From Tolypothrix carrinoi HA7290-LM1 (GTDB lineage Bacteria; Cyanobacteriota; Cyanobacteriia; Cyanobacteriales; Nostocaceae): 10,425 nucleotides of DNA. Of this stretch, positions 791 to 10,425 are shown in pieces (within the stretch, counting starts at the first letter, position 1; the number at the start of each line of letters is the position of its first letter). The notes beneath the pieces were generated by a model. That model was not told where the DNA came from. It ran no database searches and was given only the letters and a program-made list of their open reading frames with translations. The position numbers and the translations under genes were made by a program. The stretch covers positions 1-10,425 of the forward strand of contig JAHHIK010000181.1 of assembly GCA_019358935.1 (NCBI GenBank). Reading direction: 5' to 3'.

Positions 791-900
791 AATATAGCGG
801 TTCTCACTTGCGTCAAATACATTCTGATGTAGGGACAATTCATGAATTGTCCAAGAGTGCGTATCGTTGTGTATTGCATCCAACTGAAAACGGCTATATT
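791..900. mobile_element. Small non-coding MITE/REP-like element with imperfect terminal inverted repeats and a central GTAG-type palindrome
   Basis: 791-820 matches the reverse complement of 871-900 at 23/30 positions (AATATAGC...AATAC). It carries a central perfect 20-bp palindrome GGACAATTCATGAATTGTCC (833-852) that begins within a GTAGGG motif. The same core recurs at 4631-4660. Confidence 0.75.
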
Positions 901-965
901 GCCGGATAACAATTTATTTGTCGTGTTATCAAATTAATCTGGTTAAAGATTTTTGCTTGTTGTTT

Positions 966-1911
966 TCACAGTTGCTGGGTTTGGGACGCTACTAGCTCAC
1001 GTAGCCAAATGTGTAGCGGATCGTAATGGCAACGCTCATGCCAAACCTGTATATAGTTGTACTTACCAAGTTCAATCGGTGGTTCAAGCACAGCCAGGTT
1101 TGTATATTTAGCAAACAGCATGGCAATTCGACGAGGCAACGTCAGAATGAGATCGGTCTGTTGCACAATTAGAGGAGCCGAGAGAAAATGCGGTAACTTC
1201 AACATGACTCGACGCTTCACGCCTAAGCTATCCAACACAGTATCCACATGGCTTATAGGCGAGTTGGGGATTGCGTTTACAGACGAGTTCGTAATTGTAA
1301 TTAAGGCGTGTGACCAAGCAATGTAAGATTCAAGTGTAAAATCCGTTTGAGCGATCGGATGATCGGCTCGAACCACAGATACGAAATCTTCTACAAATAA
1401 CTTTTGAACTTTAAACTCATTAGTTTCTGGTAGATTTAGAACTCCTAAACCTAGATCGATCGCTCCATTTCGTAAGTTATCTAATGTGTCAGAACGCCAA
1501 TGATGGCATTCCAAATTCAGTTGGGGAGCCTGTTGAGAAATTTGATTTAAAACTGAAGGAAGAATCACGGCAGTTGCATAATCTGATGCAGCTAATTGAA
1601 TGGTGCTTTGTGCTGTTTTTGGATCAAAAACGGTTGGTTGAATTAACTGCTCGATATTTAACAAAATTTTTTGTAATGGCTCTAGTAACTCAAGAGCGCG
1701 TGGTGTAGGAACCATGCCTTTCGGAGAGCGCACTCTTCTGTGGATCGTTGAACACTTGACGTAATCGCCCAAGCGCATGACTGGTAGCGGATTGACTCAA
1801 ACCAATTCTTTCTCCAGCATTCGTGACGTTACGCTCTTCTTTGCAGGCAGATAACACCAGTAGAAGATTAAAATCCAATGTCAACAAATTTATTTTATGC
1901 ATAGGCATCAT
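966..1911 (-). pseudogene. LysR-family transcriptional regulator (NodD/NahR/MexT-like subgroup), frameshifted
   Basis: The HTH (LDFNLLLVL...NVTNAGERIGLSQSATSHALGRLRQVFNDP) is in ORF 1690..1911. The linker and effector domain (VRSPKGMVPTPRA...FDP...WHER..DPLHIWLR) is in ORF 966..1778. Seven nt (1734-1740) lie between the 'DP' and 'VR' codons where 6 are expected, giving a +1 frameshift. The start could be 1911, 1908 or 1902. Confidence 0.9.
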
Positions 1912-1992
1912 CTATATTATGCATTTGAAAAATTATACTAATTTTTTTAACATACTTCTTAGTTTTAAAATCACTGTATGAAAAAGTCAAAG

Positions 1993-2123
1993 TAATTCAT
2001 AGTTAATAATTCATAATTCATAATTTCAATTAGTGAGAGCTTGAACTCTCCACGTAATTGTTGACCACGCTCATTAAAAATGAGCTTCGCGCTTTACCGA
2101 TTAATTATGAATTAATAATTATT
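1993..2123. repeat. Nostocales-type dispersed repeat: TAATTCA heptamers flanking two stem-loops
   Basis: TAATTCA occurs at 1993, 2007 and 2014, with inverted TATGAATTA-like units at ~2102-2123. Internal hairpins are CAATTA...TAATTG (2027-2060) and GCTCATT-AAA-AATGAGC (2069-2085). Confidence 0.6.
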
Positions 2124-2137
2124 AGGTCAAACCTATC

Positions 2138-2371
2138 TTGGGGTTGGTACGAATCACAATTAATGCAATGGTGCTAATTGGATCAAGCATTTTTGTGTGG
2201 GCAATGTACCAACTTCAAGCACCTGCCGATGCAAAAAATATGATAGCGATCGCACTTGCGATTTCTATTGCCCTACTCACAGTGAGTTGTTATGCAATAC
2301 TCTCCAAAGCTTATCGTGATGCAGGGGCAGGCAGTTCCTACTACTATGCTGAAGCGGCAATTTTAAGCTAA
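2138..2371 (+). pseudogene. N-terminal remnant of an APC-superfamily (amino acid) permease
   Basis: LGL...TINAM.LIGS.IF resembles APC TM1, and 'LLT..CYA.LSKAY.DAGAGSSYYYA' resembles the conserved TM2-3 loop (Y.EL...YP.AG..Y.Y). It has only 77 codons and a TTG start. Degenerate similarity may continue to ~2450. Confidence 0.65.
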
Positions 2372-2487
2372 CAGGAGTATACGCAACTAAACTTCTAAAA
2401 AATTTACGCTTAAAACTATTGATAAATTGGTGACTTAGCCTTATTCTACTTTAACATAGTCGGACTTCAAACTATCTATTAACAATC

Positions 2488-4497
2488 GTGGTTAAAACTA
2501 ATAATACCAGCCCGTCTGTTGCACAGAAGGATGATTATCCAGGACGGGCGTACTTTGTTCGGCATGGTGAAAGCACCAGTAACGAACGTAACATTTTTGC
2601 TGGGGTACTGGATGTTGATCTCACCGCATTTGGTAGGTTGCAGGCACGGCGTGCAGGTGTTGACATTAAGAAAAAAGGTGTCAAGTTTGATGCAGTATAC
2701 GTATCTCACATGAGACGGGCGCGGCAAACTTGTGAAATCGCCCTTGCTGAAAGTCAAGCGCTCAAGTCGCCCGATATCCCTGTTCAAATCGACCATCGAA
2801 TTAGCGAGAAATCCTTTGGCATTTTTGCGGGTCGTAACCTAAATCTACTTCGTCTTGCCCTTGGCTACGAAGGCTTTGAGGAAATGTTGCATTCCCATAA
2901 CGAAGCACCTCCAGCGGGCGAGAAGATTGCCCAAGTTTACGGACGGGCTGCTTCTTTCTATGACGAGCGGATTGTACCGCACTTGAAACGGGGCGAAACT
3001 GTTTTAGTAGTGTGCCATCAATATGTATTGGAGCCTTTAGCACTTTATTTAAGTGATTTACCACCGACTGATTATAAACATCTGAAACTCCCCAATGGTA
3101 AAGCTCTCAGTGGTGAGGAGCTAGTGAAGTTTCGCAACAAAGAATCTGGCGGTACAGCTTCTTTGCGTAAACAGATCAACGATCTGTCAATTATGTGGGC
3201 AATTTTGCTTTATGCTGCTGCTTTCTTACTGGGAAGCTTGGTTAGGGCAGTAAGCGCTTCTTCCGGAGGAATTCCCTCAGAGCTATTTCGAGGGATAATC
3301 GTTGTCTGTCTGGCGGCTTCAACGTTTTATACTTACCTGGATATTGACTTTGCAGCGAGTAAACGCAAAGTAACTTCAACTGTGAAGTATATAGTCTATG
3401 CGTGGATGTTGGCGAGATGGGTAGTTGGGCTAGCTTTAATATTTTCTGGAATCTTGTATCAAAGCCCCGGCGATTTGTACAAAGTTATGTGGGTGCTTTT
3501 TTGGATGGTTCCACCCGCTCTTACTTCCCCAGTTTTATCGGTACTCTGGGGCGGTAATCTTTATCCCTCGGCTATCTTATCAAGGATGTTATCAATTATC
3601 GCTCCAGTGGCACTGATTGTTACATTTGGCTTGGCAAAACAATTACCAATTAACTCTTCCAGCTTGATATTTTTCGGTGTCATTCTAATTGTTGGTTTGG
3701 CAATACCGGGAGCTTTAGCTCAATTTTGGCGTGACAAATCTCCTGTAGAATCAAACCACCACAGTAAGAACTGGAAATTTATCGGAGTGCTTGCTGTCGC
3801 ATTTATGGCTTTGGCAACTGGGTTTCAGTTTACTCCATCAACATTCCTTTCGGATTTATTTTTCTCAACGGATGCGAACCGCTCCCTAGCTTGTCTGCAA
3901 CAATTGGCAGTGGCAACATTAGTCTTTATCTTAATGCGCGTCTTTGCTGTATTAACTTCAGTGTTTACAAAAGACAAGCTGATCAAGGCAGAAGCGAGGG
4001 ATGCTTATATCCTGCTTGTTAATCCCAACTTTTTCCTTTGGGCTGCTCTTTTCCTCGGAGTTAGTGCAACTGCAAATCCCGAAGCCGTAAGATATGCAAT
4101 TTTTTGGGCAGCACTGGGATTCTTCTGTATACCACTCATTGAGCAGATATTGTTTATGAATTCATTTGGTAATGAATTATTGCGAGAAACACTGCGTTCT
4201 TCGAGAATGGCAACAGAAGATGTGAGAAAACTTTTCCAGCAATTGGATACAGATGGCAGCAATGCACTCAATAAAGACGAGATTATGGAGCTTTTAGGTC
4301 GAATAGAAGATATGACAACAGGAGAACGTAGCTCTGAAGATGTCAGGAGGTACGTAACTGATTATCTTTTTGCCACTCTTGACTCCGATAAAAATGGCAC
4401 AGTCGATATACAAGAGTTAGAAGAGTATGTATCAACTTACGGGTTAGTTGCTAACCTTAACGTTGTCTCTGCTGCTGCATCCCCGGTAACAACATAA
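2488..4497 (+). CDS. Fusion protein: histidine phosphatase (dPGM-like) + ~10-TM BASS/Acr3-like transporter + two EF-hands
   Basis: Uninterrupted 669-aa ORF with a GTG start. Residues 20-207 carry RHGES..N, S.MRRA.QT, E107, PP.GE and VLVVCH177. Residues ~235-556 hold ten hydrophobic segments, including PPALTSPVLSVLWGGN and LAIPGALAQFWR. EF loops are DTDGSNALNKDE (aa 587, nt 4246-4281) and DSDKNGTVDIQE (aa 632, nt 4381-4416). The transporter family assignment is the least certain part. Confidence 0.85.
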   Translation: MVKTNNTSPSVAQKDDYPGRAYFVRHGESTSNERNIFAGVLDVDLTAFGRLQARRAGVDIKKKGVKFDAVYVSHMRRARQTCEIALAESQALKSPDIPVQIDHRISEKSFGIFAGRNLNLLRLALGYEGFEEMLHSHNEAPPAGEKIAQVYGRAASFYDERIVPHLKRGETVLVVCHQYVLEPLALYLSDLPPTDYKHLKLPNGKALSGEELVKFRNKESGGTASLRKQINDLSIMWAILLYAAAFLLGSLVRAVSASSGGIPSELFRGIIVVCLAASTFYTYLDIDFAASKRKVTSTVKYIVYAWMLARWVVGLALIFSGILYQSPGDLYKVMWVLFWMVPPALTSPVLSVLWGGNLYPSAILSRMLSIIAPVALIVTFGLAKQLPINSSSLIFFGVILIVGLAIPGALAQFWRDKSPVESNHHSKNWKFIGVLAVAFMALATGFQFTPSTFLSDLFFSTDANRSLACLQQLAVATLVFILMRVFAVLTSVFTKDKLIKAEARDAYILLVNPNFFLWAALFLGVSATANPEAVRYAIFWAALGFFCIPLIEQILFMNSFGNELLRETLRSSRMATEDVRKLFQQLDTDGSNALNKDEIMELLGRIEDMTTGERSSEDVRRYVTDYLFATLDSDKNGTVDIQELEEYVSTYGLVANLNVVSAAASPVTT

Positions 4498-4630
4498 GAA
4501 AGCGAGGCAGGGCGATCGCATCTTAATTAGTCTTGACAAAACCCTTGGTTAGTGTATCAACATCAGAACTTATCGTTTGATTAATTTTCACTTACAGCAA
4601 TTCTCGTAAAGGGTGAATAATGGGCGTATT

Positions 4631-4660
4631 TGTAGGGACAATTCATGAATTGTCCCTACA
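4631..4660. repeat. Perfect 30-bp GTAG-type REP palindrome, second copy of the 791-900 element core
   Basis: TGTAGGGACAATTCATGAATTGTCCCTACA is its own reverse complement. The flanks (TACAGCAATTCTC at ~4593, TGTATTGTACACAAC at ~4672) resemble decayed ends of the first copy. Confidence 0.9.
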
Positions 4661-4689
4661 CCAAGCAATAATGTATTGTACACAACGCA

Positions 4690-4865
4690 GTATTGGGGTT
4701 AATGAATATTACTTGACGTTCAATCCACGAACTCGAACAGTTAATGGAACCTACAAGTATAGTTTCTATGATTTAAACAACAGTCCACTGGATCAAAATA
4801 CTCAACCGCTTCCGTATGGAACCTTTGAATTCAGCTACCAAGGGGTGAAACTTAAGGCTGACTAA
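4690..4865 (+). pseudogene. Probable 3' remnant of an unidentified gene
   Basis: The first ~23 codons of ORF 4620..4865 are translated repeat DNA. The remainder (IGVNEYYLTFNPRTRTVNGTYKYSFY...GTFEFSYQGVKLKAD*) has an alternating beta-strand pattern and looks like real protein. I do not recognise the family. Confidence 0.45.
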
Positions 4866-4957
4866 AGATAAATGTTTTTTATAACTTATGTTTGATGTTT
4901 AAGTCCTGCTACGCTCCTTAGCCAAAAAATGCTATTTAGAACTAATGGTTAACAATA

Positions 4958-5731
4958 ATGGATAGACGAACCTTACTTAAACTCATTGGATTTGGGACGC
5001 TGGAAATTTCCTTGGGTGTCAGTTTCCCATCAAGGGTGTCTGCTGTTGGACACGAAGTTCACTGGGGCTATATCGGAGAAAGCGGCGCCCAGAATTGGGG
5101 GAACCTGTCTCCCGAATTTCAACTGTGCAAAACGGGAATCCAGCAATCGCCAATTGATTTGCACGGATCGGTTCCAGCCCAACTCGAAGCAATTGAAATT
5201 AATTATAAGGAAAGTCCTCTACGCATCGTCAATAACGGTCACACCATCCAAGTGAACTATGAATCGGGAAGCTCAATTAAGCTGGACGGTGAGACCTTTA
5301 ACCTGGTGCAATTTCACTTCCACGACCCCAGCGAACACACGATTGAGAAAAAATTATTTGACATGGAATTGCATCTAGTACACCGCAGCGAGGCTGGTGC
5401 ATTAGCTGTGATTGGAGTGTTATTGAAGCAGGGACAACACAATGCTGCCCTGCAACCGATCTGGGACGCATTCCCAAATCGCAACGAACCAGAGCAATTA
5501 GTGAAGACAGTGAAAATAAATGCAGAGCAATTTTTACCAAAAGACCGAAAAATTTACCGCTACTTTGGCTCTCTGACGACGCCACCCTGCTCCCAAGGAG
5601 TGAACTGGATTGTGATGCAGCAGCCTATTGAAATCTCACAAAATCAGATCCAGCGATTTGCCAACTTAATATCCATTGATGCCAGACCTGTGCAACCGCT
5701 AAACAATCGCTTTGTGTTGCGTTCGAGTTGA
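4958..5731 (+). CDS. cah: Alpha-class carbonic anhydrase with twin-arginine (Tat) signal peptide (EcaA/Cah-like)
   Basis: MDRRTLLK Tat motif, then HWGY, QSPIDL and NNGHT (proton shuttle His). Zn ligands lie in QFHFH and ELHLVH. SEH, YFGSLTTPPC and RPVQP are present, as are both disulfide cysteines. Confidence 0.95.
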   Translation: MDRRTLLKLIGFGTLEISLGVSFPSRVSAVGHEVHWGYIGESGAQNWGNLSPEFQLCKTGIQQSPIDLHGSVPAQLEAIEINYKESPLRIVNNGHTIQVNYESGSSIKLDGETFNLVQFHFHDPSEHTIEKKLFDMELHLVHRSEAGALAVIGVLLKQGQHNAALQPIWDAFPNRNEPEQLVKTVKINAEQFLPKDRKIYRYFGSLTTPPCSQGVNWIVMQQPIEISQNQIQRFANLISIDARPVQPLNNRFVLRSS

Positions 5732-5747
5732 ATAACGACGAAACAAT

Positions 5748-5774
5748 CCCCGATTTTTAACAAGCAAGTCGGGG
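5748..5774 (+). terminator. Stem-loop downstream of the carbonic anhydrase (terminator/stabiliser or small dispersed palindrome)
   Basis: CCCCGATTT (5748-5756) pairs with AAGTCGGGG (5766-5774) with one G-U pair and a 9-nt loop. No U-tract follows. Confidence 0.5.
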
Positions 5775-5830
5775 TAGTTGAAAGTATCAGAATAGACTAT
5801 AACGCTGTGTAAGTATCAAATTAGGTAGCC

Positions 5831-7019
5831 ATGAAAACTTTTGCAATATCATTTATAGAAGCTCTTGCTGGTTCTGATTTTTGGAAACTCATTTTTAATG
5901 CAGACATCTCTATCGTTAACACACCGATACCGCTGTTCAAAATCGTTCTTATCGTCATTGTCCTCACACTTACTCTGGCGTTAAAACAAGTTTTCTCCGA
6001 AATTATCATTCGTAGAATCGAGCGTCTAACTAGCAAAACGCAGACCACTTTTGACGATGAGTTGGTCGAGATTATCAAGCAACCTTTAAACTGGCTGATT
6101 GTTATCGGTGGACTTTGGATAGTGCAGCTAATTCTGGCAGAAAATTTCGGAACAGAATTCAACGAAAAAGTAGAAGGGATTCTCAGGTTTGGTGCTTACG
6201 CTACCTTCTTATTTATTGTTTACCGTGCCGCTCCTGTGTTGGGAGAGGTGCTGAAACAATGGACGCTCTCAACTGAAACCGAGCTAGACGATTTGCTCGT
6301 GCCCTATTTGCCGAAATTGTTTCAGGTGTTGGCGATCGCGATTATCTTGCTTAAAGCAAGTGAAGTGTTTTTGGGTGCATCCGCAGGGGCACTCATCGGG
6401 TTGCTTGGTGGAGCGGGTGTTGCGATCGGTTTGTTATTGAAAGACCTGATCTATGACTTGTGTTGTACCGTCATTATCTACGTAGATAACCTGTTTCGAC
6501 CCGGTGACCAAGTGACGATGCATGGAGTAGAGGGTCTAATTAAAGTGGAAAATGTTGGACTCAGAAGTACAACCCTTCGTATACTGACCAGAAACACTAT
6601 CCAAAAAGTGCCCAATTCTAAAATGATTAATGGAGTCGTTGAAAATTGCTTCCAATCGGTAGGGAATGATAATTCAATAGGTATCAACTTAAAGAGTGAA
6701 AATTGATAATATTTCGGCAGAAAAAACAGAGAAAATTTGTGTCGATCTTCGATAAATTCCCAAGTCAATTGATATCTTGACGGAAAAGTTTTTTATCTAC
6801 TTTAGCGAGCTAAATCAAAATTCTCGTATCATTAAAATTAGGGTTTTTGCTAATACTAATGGTAATCCCAAATTATACTTTGATACCATTGAAAAAGTCA
6901 ACTTAGCGATACTGACCCTACTGGAGAAAGAGCAGATTAATCTATTCTCCTATTATCCGGTGCAACTTCAAAATCAGCTTGGAGAAGCTCAAAATAACTT
7001 AGAACCGCTGAAAAATTGA
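5831..7019 (+). pseudogene. MscS-family mechanosensitive channel, frameshift plus premature stop
   Basis: Gly/Ala-rich pore helix LIGLLGGAGVAIGLLLKD, then FRPGD.V, G..KVENVGLRSTTLR and VPNS. An extra A at 6691-6693 shifts the frame. The +1 frame continues RVKIDNISAEKTEKICVDLR*(TAA 6753-6755)IPKSID... into ORF 6777..7019, which ends with an MscS-like C-terminal helix (EKVNLAILTLLEKEQI). Confidence 0.9.
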
Positions 7020-7109
7020 CAAAGCAGATAAATACACCAAATGCATTAGACATCTGCGAAAAAGAATGTATGGCGATCAGCAAATGACAACTTAAGGATA
7101 GGTAAGTTG

Positions 7110-7469
7110 ATGGTAAGAATCTCAAAAACTACTGCCAGAAAAATGTGGCTTAGAGAAATATTTAGATTTCAAGGTTCTGTTATTCCTGGAATTTTGGAAC
7201 GTTCTCTCTTCTGTGCTGCATTTAGTATTCTGATTTCCTTTCTTTACTTTATTAAATTGCCCGTTGCTCAACCGATTTTAGGCAGTGTAATTCCCAGTAT
7301 TGTTTTAGCTTTATTGCTAGTATTTCGTACTAATACAGCTTATGAGCGATTTTGGGAAGGAAGAAAACTTTGGGGTAGTACAGTTAACACTATCCGCAAT
7401 TTAGCTTGGCAAATTTGGGTTGCAGTTGACGAAGTTGAACCTGGAGATCGAGAGCGTAAAATTACCACA
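7110..7469 (+). pseudogene. Bestrophin-family (YneE-like) anion channel, 3'-truncated
   Basis: GSVIP and LALLLVFRTNTAYERFWEGRKLWG..VN..RNLA are hallmark bacterial bestrophin motifs. Similarity ends after ~120 aa at 'RERKITT', whereas full-length members are about 300 aa. The ORF reads on through unrelated sequence to a stop at 7544. Confidence 0.9.
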
Positions 7470-7530
7470 TGTGGTAGGGAGCTATTTTCTGATGAACGAT
7501 TTTTAACTTTTTTTCAAGCCAAAAATTTAT

Positions 7531-9668
7531 ATGCAATTACTTAAGCAATTAAGTATAAAAACAAAACTTATAGTCATGTTGCTGGTAGTCAGCCTTTGCG
7601 CTATGCTTGCCAGCACCTTTACATGCTCTACTGCTGGTAGGTCTCTTCTGACGGAAAAGGTCTTCAATCAATTAACCAGCCTTCGGGCTGCCAAAACTTA
7701 TCAAATCGAAGATTATTTTCAAAACCTTTACATCCATAGCCAGACTTTAAGCGAAGACCTGACAGTCGTCGCTGCCATGCAGGAGCTTACCGCGAACTGG
7801 AAAAATCAACAGTACCAGCGGATTTTGACAAAAAAATTGATACCTACTACCAAACACAATTTCTCCCCAAACTGGCGCGAACTAGCGAGGGTTCACCCGT
7901 TCTCGCATCTTACACGCCAAAAACAACTGCTGCCCGTTACCTACAATACTACTACACCGTCGCTAACCCCAACCCCGTTGGTAAGAAACTTCTCCTTGAC
8001 GACCCAGGCGATCGCAGTTCCTACAGCCGCGTTCACGCCCGCTACCAGCCGATTTTTCGCAATATAGTGCAGAAATACGGTTACTATGATATGTTTTTAA
8101 TCGATCCCGCAGGAACCGTTGTCTACACGGTTTTTAAAGAAACCGATTTTACCACAAACTTGATCAACGGTCCCTACAAAGAGAGTAACTTAGCAGAAGC
8201 GATCGCTGCCGCACGACAAGCAAACGGAAAGGGTTATGTGAAAATAGTAGATTTTCAGCCCTACAACCCTTCTGGGAGTGCGCCTGCGGCTTTTATCGCT
8301 GCCCCAATCTTTAACGGCTCCCAATTCATTGGTATTTTGGCGTTCCAGCTTCCGGTTGACAAAATTAACAATGTGATGACTGGCAACAAACATTGGAAAG
8401 AAAATGGTCTGGGCGATTCAGGAGAAACTTATCTGGTGGGACCGGATTATCTAATGCGCTCTGCGTCTCGTTTCCAGATTGAAGACCCGAAAGGTCATGC
8501 AAAAACCCTACGCTCTATCGGCACTGATGAAAAGACCATCAACAAAATCACAGAGTTCAATACTACAATCCTCCTACAGTCAGTACAAACAAAAGCAGTA
8601 AAGGAAGCGTTGTTTGGCAAACAGGGTACGCAGGTTATCAACGATTATCGTAATATTCCGGTTTTGAGTTCTTATGCTCCACTAAATATTAATGGCTTGA
8701 GGTGGGTTATCTTGGCGGAAATAGATGTTTCTGAGGCTTATGCCCCAATTCACTCGTTTGAAAAAACAGTTTTGATTGGGGCTACTTTAGTCATCGCCCT
8801 AATCACGCTTGTTGCCATGTGGCTGACCGCAATGTTTGTCAAACCGATCAATACTTTAATCAAAAGCGCTCGCAAGGTGGGAGCCGGGGAATTTGATGCG
8901 GTTGTGAAATCGGGTTCGCAAGATGAATTTGGAGAGTTGGCTAAATCATTTAACCAAACAATAGACAGCCTTCGTGCCGAAACTCAACTCATCGATCGCC
9001 AAAATCGCTCTAATGAAGCATTAGTCTTAAGTATATTTAGTCCCGCGATCGCCAAACGCCTTAAAGACGGAGAGAGAGAAATTGCCGATCATATTTCTAA
9101 TGTCTCGGTCTTGTTTTCCCACCTCCACCGATTCACCAGGCTTTCTCAAACGATGTCTGCTCAAGAAGTTGTTGCCCTGCTTAATGAATTAGTAACTAAC
9201 TTCGATGAAATGACAGAAAAATACGGTTTGGAGAAGATTAAAACTATTGGTGACGGTTACATGGCTGTATGCGGGCTGAGTGTGCCGCGTCTGGATCATG
9301 ACAAACGCACGGTAGATTTTGCTTTGGAAATGCAGGCGTTTGTCCGCCGATTTAATTATGAAAAAGGCTTGCATTTAGATGTGGAAATCGGCATCAATTC
9401 CGGAGATGTGGTTGCAGGCGTGATTGGCAAAAATAAATTGCTCTACGACGTTTGGGGGGATACTGTAAATATTGCCAATCGGTTGAAGTCTGCTTGTCCT
9501 GTAGGAGCAATTTTAGTTTCTCAAAATATATGCGATCGCCTGCGCGATATCTACAATTTTGAATTCTTTGGTGAAATTCAAGAACCTGGAAAAGAAAAGC
9601 TAGTGGGTTGGCAACTCAAAAGTTCTCAGCTGACAGTAAGTGTTCGAGAGGAAGAAGTTTATGAGTAA
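7531..9668 (+). pseudogene. Membrane class III adenylate cyclase (TM-Cache-TM-HAMP-cyclase), frameshifted
   Basis: TM1 is in ORF 7531..8067. At 7783-7787 (GAGCT) the sense moves to another frame, which reads AYRELEKS...YLQYYY...VHARYQPIFRNIVQKYGYYDMFLID without stops into ORF 8067..9668. Recognisable motifs are Cache (GLGDSGETYLVG, DYR..PVLSSYAPL), HAMP (DEFGELAKSFN) and cyclase (EKIKTIGDGYM, IGINSG.VVAGVIG, YDVWGDTVNIA.RL). Confidence 0.9.
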
Positions 9669-10298
9669 TTTAAGCTTTTCAAAGGACTGGCATACCTGGG
9701 CACTAATTGTCGGATTAGGGTTCCCACTCCTGGTAGTTTTACTAGGAGAAATTATTTATCATCTAAAAAGGCGCGGTAGACCGATGGCGGCTACCCTGCG
9801 GGTTGTGAAAAACCTCGTTTTGCCCGTGTTAATGCTGATGCTTTTAATCAGGAATGTCCTGAAGCTTGACGTTAACGGGAATTTTCCAAAGCTCGTCCAA
9901 ACGCTGTTTTGGATATCTGTGATCTACGCCTCTCTCTCGCTATTTAATGTGATTTTGTTTGAAGAAGCGGAGGCAAATACATGGCGGGCACGGATGCCCA
10001 AACTGCTGATCGACCTTTCTCGGCTGTTTTTGGTGCTTGTAGGAAGCGCGATCGTGCTGGCGGCGGTGTGGGGTGCAGATTTGGCAGGTCTGGCTACCGG
10101 ATTAGGCGTTAGCTCGATTGTCATCGGTTTGGCGCTTCAGGACACATTGGGTAGCATCATGTCTGGGATTGCGCTGCTTTTGGAACGCCCCTTCAGCGTG
10201 GGTGATTGGTTGCGCGTTGGCAATAGCGAAGACCAGGCGATCGAAGGGCAAGTAATTGATATCAATTGGCGATCTGTTCGCCTGCTAACTCTCCTGCG
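9661..10298 (+). pseudogene. MscS-family channel (likely cNMP-domain/bCNG type), 3'-truncated
   Basis: ATG at 9661 overlaps the cyclase stop (ATGAGTAA). Motifs GLATGLGVSSIVIGLALQDTLG, ERPFSVGDW and EGQVIDINWRSVRL are present. Similarity stops mid beta-domain at ~10298, and read-through ends at TAG 10321-10323. Confidence 0.85.
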
Positions 10299-10425
10299 CC
10301 AGGTTCAAAAGTTACAGGTTTAGCTATAGTGCAAGATAGTGAAGTTGTTTGGGCTGCTAACTTAGAACATCGAGGCAATGAAATTAAGAAGGATTTGAAA
10401 TCTCGTGCTGCTGTCAGAAGGTCGA
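10299..10425 (+). mobile_element. iscB: 5'-truncated IscB (IS200/IS605 OMEGA RNA-guided endonuclease, RRXRR domain) gene fragment, runs off the window
   Basis: The frame starting at 10299 gives PGSKVTGLAIVQDSEVVWAANLEHRGNEIKKDLKSRAAVRRS. This matches the IscB RuvC-I and bridge-helix pattern (D)PGSK.TG.A.V....V.W...L.HRG..IK..L..R...RR.R. It is absent from the ORF track because it has no start codon. Confidence 0.85.

Follow-up and report, generated by a model that had tools for sequence, protein, structure and literature searches.

Why a histidine phosphatase, a ten-helix membrane domain and a pair of EF-hands should be joined in one polypeptide is the question raised by a gene of the cyanobacterium Tolypothrix carrinoi HA7290-LM1, which lies on a stretch of 10,425 nucleotides (contig JAHHIK010000181.1; hereafter, the window). 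The gene is a single stop-free open reading frame (ORF) with a GTG start, running from 2488 to 4497 on the + strand and encoding 669 amino acids (aa). We find that it belongs to a real, undescribed family, in which a phosphatase derived from 2,3-bisphosphoglycerate-dependent phosphoglycerate mutase (dPGM) is fused to an ASBT-fold domain free of sodium sites, with a predicted calcium-binding module added in cyanobacteria and algae. Although the parts are known, the membrane domain represents a branch of the bile-acid-carrier fold that has no Pfam family and is labelled phosphoglycerate mutase in databases.

A Pfam scan of the 669-aa protein recovered PF00300 (aa 22-204, E 1.4e-31, 110 bits) and EF-hand_7 (aa 577-648, E 7.5e-11), and no family match in the membrane part. 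An earlier note, made from the DNA letters, had described an intact ORF with a dPGM-like domain and two EF loops, and both the ORF and the Pfam scan bear this out; of the Pfam families it had named, PF00300 and an EF-hand family were indeed found, whereas PF01758 and PF13593 gave no match. The motifs it had singled out are also where it placed them (PPALTSP at aa 342-348, GGN at 355-357 and LVNPNFF at 510-516), and the EF loops occupy aa 587-598 and 632-643. With TM standing for transmembrane helix, the protein is laid out as follows:

2488..4497, + strand: whole gene, histidine phosphatase, BASS-fold membrane domain and EF-hand pair, 669 aa (ORF, Pfam, model)
2542..3123, + strand: histidine phosphatase domain, aa 19-212, dPGM-derived, with R25, H26, R77, E107 and H177 retained (Pfam, alignments)
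3124..3198, + strand: predicted helical linker from the phosphatase to TM1, aa 213-237 (model)
3199..4155, + strand: predicted ten-helix BASS/ASBT-fold domain, aa 238-556, without canonical Na1/Na2 ligands (model, structure search, profile alignment)
3415..3417, + strand: R310 in TM3, aligned with the Na2 ligand Q77 of ASBT-NM (profile alignment)
3511..3558, + strand: TM4 crossover, PPALTSP followed by GGN; P348 replaces ASBT N115 (profile alignment)
3721..3774, + strand: conserved cytoplasmic TM6-TM7 loop with Q412, R415, P419 and W429 (alignment, model)
4015..4035, + strand: TM9 crossover, LVNPNFF; L509 and P513 replace E260 and Q264, and N514 corresponds to ASBT N265 (profile alignment)
4156..4440, + strand: TM10 helix extending to aa 571, then the EF-hand pair, aa 576-651 (Pfam, model)

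The gene is far from isolated. A whole-protein search returned 268 matches among 8000 candidates, and the 120 homologues listed, all cyanobacterial, are 83-97% identical across 95-100% of the length and without exception carry the phosphatase together with the two crossover motifs and a pair of EF loops, the closest being named Nostoc, Aulosira, Brasilonema and Cylindrospermum. Among 79 loci of named genomes, an ORF of at least 640 aa is present in 69; the gene is broken in five (four by frameshifts or stops, one by absence of the phosphatase part), and in a further five it is cut at a contig end or its ORF start was called late. The alga Klebsormidium nitens (GAQ80984.1) has all three parts in the same domain order, and two EukProt entries are further eukaryotic members of the family. 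A chance chimera or misassembly, to which the shortness of the contig and its several broken genes might point, is refuted by these homologues and loci sharing the three-part layout, and its probability is practically nil. A contig from a sequencing run, possibly the window's own source, covers 855-4653 with zero differences, which amounts to an assembly check and not to an independent one.

We compared the window gene with its relatives in 70 pairs, dropping those with a synonymous rate (dS) outside 0.05-1.5. The median pairwise ratio of nonsynonymous to synonymous rates (dN/dS) was lowest in the phosphatase (0.074, 66 pairs), intermediate in the membrane domain (0.159, 68 pairs) and highest in the EF-hands (0.253, 67 pairs). 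The fusion is under purifying selection, and the phosphatase is its most constrained domain. The proposal of a real, selected fusion made in the earlier note is thus upheld by the 120 homologues and the dN/dS values, the fusion being present in many other genomes. On the other hand, its remark that the gene stays intact amid broken neighbours is true of the window, but the gene is accessory in cyanobacteria, being found in 2 of 10 genomes of the same genus, and is broken in the five loci mentioned above. Of 400 other genomes of the phylum, 19 gave a match (17 over the whole membrane domain, one fragmentary and one weak), and on plasmids no full-length family member was found.

In the host genome, where HIP1 occurs at about 990 per Mb, the gene is single-copy. 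One related locus instead holds tandem full-length copies (L022:1297-3306 and 3657-5666), the second having about 70% identity to the window protein over its membrane domain; this pair lies next to the dihaem cytochrome c gene that the window also has. A contig from an RNA library of a relative, about 92% alike (X23, with X22 from the same study), covers 2551-4484 unbroken, which we did not count as expression because DNA carry-over is possible.

In other prokaryotes, the family has a simpler form. A profile of the membrane domain alone gave 73 representatives at 50% clustering, and a phosphatase precedes that domain in all 34 that have at least 60 residues ahead of it, a count that is partly circular because the profile was built from the family itself. 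Pfam recognised the phosphatase in 31 of the 46 representatives scanned, the remainder being mostly fragments. What follows the membrane domain varies: EF-hands, GAF (n=2), a weak PH match, an NTF2-like domain, or nothing. Two-domain members of about 500-600 aa occur in a Methanophagaceae archaeon, Frondihabitans, Streptomyces, Kitasatospora, Amycolatopsis and Lentzea. In a midpoint-rooted tree of 38 rows, most of them without a taxon, the cyanobacterial and the three named eukaryotic rows form one group of 17 with 100/100 support, apart from the two-domain prokaryotes. Judged by these domain contents, phosphatase and carrier domain form the conserved core, while the EF-hands are an exchangeable add-on. 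The three-domain unit proposed earlier therefore stands for cyanobacteria, but its EF-hands fall outside the core.

The fold of the membrane part is known from modelling, since sequence searches with this domain against Pfam and PDB sequences returned nothing. PF01758 (SBF) and SBF_like likewise gave no match in the 9 + 30 members tested, a feature-level likeness of 0.92 being all that was seen. AlphaFold gave a full-length model with a mean predicted local distance difference test (pLDDT) of 89.5 and a predicted template modelling score (pTM) of 0.84; for the membrane domain alone, the values were 91.8 and 0.89. The latter model has ten helices with breaks in TM4 and TM9, in agreement with what had been read from the sequence. 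Its best PDB match is ASBT of Yersinia (Z 22.8, root-mean-square deviation 3.9, 296 of 304 residues aligned), followed by ASBT of Neisseria (Z 21.9) and NTCP (Z about 20), with weaker matches to NHA2 (Z 17.9), SbtA (16.3), and LYCHOS and PIN (15-16). A wide search of 48,161 representatives ranked ASBT, NTCP and SbtA highest, in this order, and counted no more than 20 chains that reach Z 8. As modelled, the membrane domain has the BASS/ASBT fold and lies nearest to ASBT and NTCP. With ASBT matched at Z 22.8, the worry that this region might fail to fit the BASS/NhaA fold has gone; within the wider assignment first made (BASS/ASBT/Acr3, including SbtA), the ASBT/NTCP part stands, whereas neither Acr3 nor SbtA comes closest in fold.

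The likeness to ASBT-NM (3ZUY, 8OYG), ASBT-Yf (4N7W) and NTCP (Z 19-23) extends from the ten-helix fold to the TM4/TM9 crossover, the GN turn after TM4 and the largely retained positions S128, T132 and N265. In contrast to these proteins, the family lacks PF01758/PF13593, shares 9-15% identity with them in structural alignments, and always carries the fused phosphatase; unlike ASBT, it has N115, E260 and Q264 replaced and Arg or Lys at Q77. SbtA (with SbtB), PIN, LYCHOS/GPR155 and NhaA/CPA have a related elevator fold (Z 12-18) and are regulated by attached or fused soluble modules, but they differ in their lower scores, their other crossover motifs and the absence of a histidine phosphatase among the entries returned. 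Acr3 was considered and rejected: it shares the superfamily PF01758, and enzyme fusions to Acr3 are known, but membership is excluded by a profile match of 0.2%, and the invariant Acr3 Cys in TM4 and N-x-F-E motif in TM9 are absent.

Lys and Arg residues in the loops number 12 inside against 5 outside in this protein, and on average 9.4 against 3.4 in 32 relatives. This charge bias therefore places both soluble ends on the cytoplasmic side, as had been supposed from the even number of helices.

We then mapped the ligand residues in ASBT-NM numbering by aligning the family profile to 19 ordinary BASS proteins; because the probabilities of these alignments are low (34% and 64%), the map depends on the match in fold and the spacing of motifs. 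The accessible part of a preprint on ASBT-LB (bioRxiv 10.64898/2026.02.20.706973), whose residues we carried to ASBT-NM numbers, lists S114, N115, S128, T132 and E260 as Na1 ligands and Q77 and Q264 as side-chain ligands of Na2. In the family, the N115 position holds Pro in 39 of 52 rows and Asn in none; the Q264 position is Pro in 46 of 49 and Gln in none; and none of the 44 rows covered, out of 46, has an acidic residue at E260, nor do 31 rows tested further. S128 and T132 are partly retained, with Ser or Thr in 24/52 and 44/52 rows. The Q77 position is R310 in the window protein, with Arg in 40 and Lys in 7 of 47 rows, and its distance from the TM2 Leu is 24-26 in 32 of 41 rows, compared with 24 in the control. 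At the level of these alignments, the canonical BASS sodium sites are gone from the membrane domain; since they are not kept, Na+ symport is unlikely. A lysine standing in for Na2 has a precedent in another fold, according to the accessible text of PMC5803215.

The position of the substrate-binding N265 is N514 here and Asn in 42 of 48 rows; in ASBT-NM, the available part of PMC10645422 reports, N265A abolishes pantoate binding, and the recognised group is hydroxy-acetate. For the ASBT TM10 substrate residues H294 and N295, no confident counterpart could be placed in the family. Six of the 19 controls (the stand-alone cyanobacterial PF01758 proteins L148 and L150-L154) also lack E260 and have Arg at Q264, three of them with Pro at N115. 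Loss of the sodium ligands need not, therefore, mean loss of transport, and these six proteins represent a second sodium-site-free group, which may be near the origin of the family's membrane domain.

The phosphatase belongs to branch 1 of the histidine phosphatases, with the RHG motif present, and its R25, H26, R77, E107 and H177 correspond in the alignment to the catalytic residues of dPGM. This R-H-R-E-H set is whole in 25 of 30 complete rows, including every prokaryote-type row, and is shared, together with the fold (Z 22-25), with dPGM, PhoE/YhfR, PspA and CobC. The database annotation would make the protein a membrane-anchored dPGM; the closest solved relatives of the domain are indeed dPGMs (Z 22-25), and the subfamily model TIGR01258 passes its cut-off (91.1 against 81.7). 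On the other hand, all dPGM equivalog models fall far below theirs (103 against 316 at best), the family has H-Q/K-Y where dPGM has H-G-N, and the dPGM C-terminal tail is absent, a membrane domain standing in its stead. To compare substrate contacts, we assumed that the residue numbers of human dPGM can be carried over to this protein. The 2,3-bisphosphoglycerate contacts named in the accessible part of PMC5355328 are replaced in this protein: Ala stands for S/T23, Phe for Y92, Leu for both K100 and R116, His for R117 and Tyr for N188. A mutase is, in our view, very improbable; the domain is probably an active phosphatase without mutase activity. By the features tested, the family lies outside the Na+-coupled BASS, Acr3 and dPGM families alike.

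How the two domains meet is suggested by the model. For 27 of 49 phosphatase chains, the alignment to the full model, as read from the aligned ranges, continues into residues 421-431, which belong to the TM6-TM7 loop; in this loop, Q412, R415, P419 and W429 are conserved in 47-50 of 52-53 rows. We take the C-terminal tail of dPGM-type enzymes to lie by the active site. In the model, the conserved carrier loop occupies the place of this mutase tail. The phosphatase joins the carrier via TM1, while TM10 is one helix (aa 531-571) leading into the EF-hands. The panel of ASBT includes TM1 and TM7, and its core TM10, as the available text of PMC10645422 describes. Because of these attachments, we infer that the phosphatase would rest on the static panel and the EF-hand pair on the moving core.

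In both EF loops, D1, D3 and E12 are invariant in 71 of 71 cyanobacterial genes, and the pair follows the paired helix-loop-helix pattern D1, D3, D/N/S5, E12; loop 1 lacks the usual Gly6, having Lys in 46 and Asn in 18 of the 71. The tail is predicted to bind Ca2+. Few membrane targets of calcium signals are known from filamentous cyanobacteria; the EF-hand form would provide a concrete one and also connect them with algae.

Considering all the above results, we propose, tentatively and with a confidence that stops a little short of the midpoint, that the protein is a sodium-independent carrier of the BASS/ASBT fold whose phosphatase makes its solute and which, in cyanobacteria, is modulated by calcium. 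The cytoplasmic phosphatase, permanently fused, would dock at the inner face of the carrier. Sequence and model show that it has the full phospho-histidine catalytic set and lacks the mutase substrate pocket, and its active site may be turned to the carrier with the TM6-TM7 loop as a cap. It would hydrolyse a small phosphorylated acid and pass on the anionic product, at best guess a 2-hydroxy acid (for example, glycerate or glycolate) or possibly phosphate. At the crossover site, this product would be bound by N514 and the helix N-termini, with R310 substituting for the Na2 ion. Its transport by the carrier would then follow the gradient or be coupled to a proton, the simplest direction being outward, and Ca2+ on the EF-hand pair, attached through TM10 to the moving core, would modulate the cycle in cyanobacteria and some algae. 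If true, such a coupling would be a group-translocation-like device in reverse, in which phosphate is removed and the product moved, built on a sodium-symport fold, and the family would be a natural setting in which to ask whether arginine can take over from the Na2 ion in BASS carriers.

Several observations weigh against this proposal. Five of the 30 complete rows, all long and eukaryote-like (P0138, P0140, P0146, P0185 and P0191), are catalytically degenerate yet keep most carrier motifs, so catalysis is not needed everywhere; P0185 and P0191 also have a big additional N-terminal region with no Pfam match. The K100 equivalent is Leu in this protein although it is Lys in 22 of 29 relatives. 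Moreover, the residue map derives from weak profile alignments and not from superposed coordinates, and N265 may be structural, since all 19 ordinary BASS controls have it as well and it additionally caps TM4b in ASBT-NM, as stated in the accessible part of PMC10645422. The presence of the family in actinobacteria and an archaeal lineage disfavours a role in photorespiration alone. Finally, no neighbouring gene indicates a pathway, the neighbours being mostly signalling and channel genes.

The persistence of pseudo-phosphatase members would be consistent with a carrier that moves an unrelated solute, bicarbonate or another anion, and on which the phosphatase serves as a regulator binding a phosphometabolite, as SbtB does on SbtA. 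This would also fit the related fold of SbtA and the carbonic anhydrase, bestrophin and adenylate cyclase genes adjoining the gene in the window. A parallel is LmSLC26A of Leishmania, which, according to the available part of its preprint (bioRxiv 10.1101/2025.07.16.665125), pairs a bicarbonate carrier with a histidine phosphatase; that protein differs in its SLC26 fold, its STAS domain and its C-terminal RHGxRxP-type phosphatase, described there as extracellular, and is an analogy rather than a homologue. However, carbonic anhydrase lies near the gene in just 5 of 71 loci, the catalytic set is full in every prokaryote-type row, and ASBT is much nearer in fold than SbtA. We therefore regard such a regulated carrier as quite unlikely.

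No characterised protein of this kind was known to the earlier note, and the literature searched, which left out most subscription papers, yielded no description of the architecture. The accessible part of PMC7016017 describes cyanobacterial EF-hand fusions, including a 7TM form, and does not name this architecture; the parts available of PMC6355987 and PMC10574481 hold nothing relevant to it.

The genomic context was examined in 71 cyanobacterial loci of at least 10 kb. The most frequent markers are a globin-pentapeptide fusion (35 loci), a 105-aa protein (31), MscS types (31) and adenylate cyclase (17), followed by an NOX5-like oxidase (12), EamA (12), an EF-hand urea transporter (8) and carbonic anhydrase (5). 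At least one marker occurs in 58 of the 71 loci (28 of 39 once the Microcoleus group is set aside), compared with 2.3% of 21-kb windows drawn at random from the own genome; the markers were chosen from these very loci, and related loci are not independent. In cyanobacteria, the gene sits in a shuffled cluster. Among metagenome loci, 18 of 80 were examined and comprised eight distinct non-cyanobacterial two-domain loci, of which three (L164, L169 and L173) have as neighbours an ABC_sub_bind protein together with a PAS-kinase-receiver or PAS-GGDEF-EAL gene; the others of the eight have no common context. L173 additionally has an MscS gene.

These signalling neighbours, in and outside cyanobacteria, and above all a context that names no pathway, argue for a transceptor, in which the BASS-fold domain would have given up bulk movement of solute and would bind an anion (and Ca2+ through the EF-hands) and switch the phosphatase, the output being a signalling metabolite or a phosphoprotein. 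The lost ion-coupling ligands, the sensor nature of the C-terminal modules (EF-hand, GAF and the weak PH match) and the appearance of LYCHOS, a sensor of this fold, among the structure matches are in line with it. Nonetheless, conservation across the family extends to the substrate Asn and the two crossover motifs, the six stand-alone controls lack sodium ligands too, and the marker counts carry the bias noted above. A transceptor is thus unlikely, if still a serious contender.

Returning to the carrier supplied by its own phosphatase, this could be part of a broader picture that we consider possible but rather doubtful, in which an undescribed family of bacteria, archaea and eukaryotes unites phosphatase and elevator carrier as one machine. 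Its enzyme would be seated on the panel, the carrier loop would serve as lid, arginine would stand for sodium, and the core would be under a swappable sensor (EF-hands or GAF). In filamentous cyanobacteria, the cluster would then be a mobile island (EF-hand oxidase and urea transporter, channels, adenylate cyclase) that makes up a eukaryote-like calcium response module, with the EF-hand form shared with algae.

In the window itself, the island continues downstream of the gene:

4958..10323, + strand: alpha-carbonic anhydrase, MscS, bestrophin, Cache-HAMP adenylate cyclase and MscS-cNMP (Pfam, relatives)

The alpha-carbonic anhydrase gene is complete (aa 1-256 of 256), and so, apparently, is the dihaem cytochrome c ORF (177 aa against 180 in L022). 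Compared with intact relatives, the LysR gene carries a frameshift and a stop, and MscS (5831-7019) and the Cache-HAMP adenylate cyclase are frameshifted. Aa 12-120 of 312 are left of the bestrophin, which at 7107-7544 breaks off near aa 120 with the adenylate cyclase gene directly against it, an apparent deletion. MscS-cNMP ends at aa 221 of 507, cut at 10299-10425 where a high-depth repeat begins at the contig end. At the contig start (1-142) lie tandem repeats of 9 bases, which are of the short kind typical of cyanobacteria and recur elsewhere in the genome. A hydrophobic 77-aa ORF at 2138-2371, which we take to resemble a fragment of an amino-acid permease, has no match in Pfam, the genome or the loci. 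The upstream region contains no conserved pho box or NtcA site, and promoter-like sites are at chance level (9 against 6.5 expected).

Other island proteins deserve mention. EF-hands are also found C-terminally on the urea transporter, fused to the NOX5-like oxidase and, in an 800-aa protein, to an Erv1/Alr domain (L057:16668-18341, L057:11724-13739 and L067:15201-17603). A 267-aa membrane protein with no Pfam match (L080:12293-13096) and a 465-aa protein that weakly matches class-I glutamine amidotransferase (L056:10744-12141) also occur. The 105-aa protein, which has no Pfam match, almost always lies directly upstream of the gene for two globins and pentapeptide repeats (L050:13923-14270, L062:13624-15624), and in the window's genome this pair is found on contig C14.

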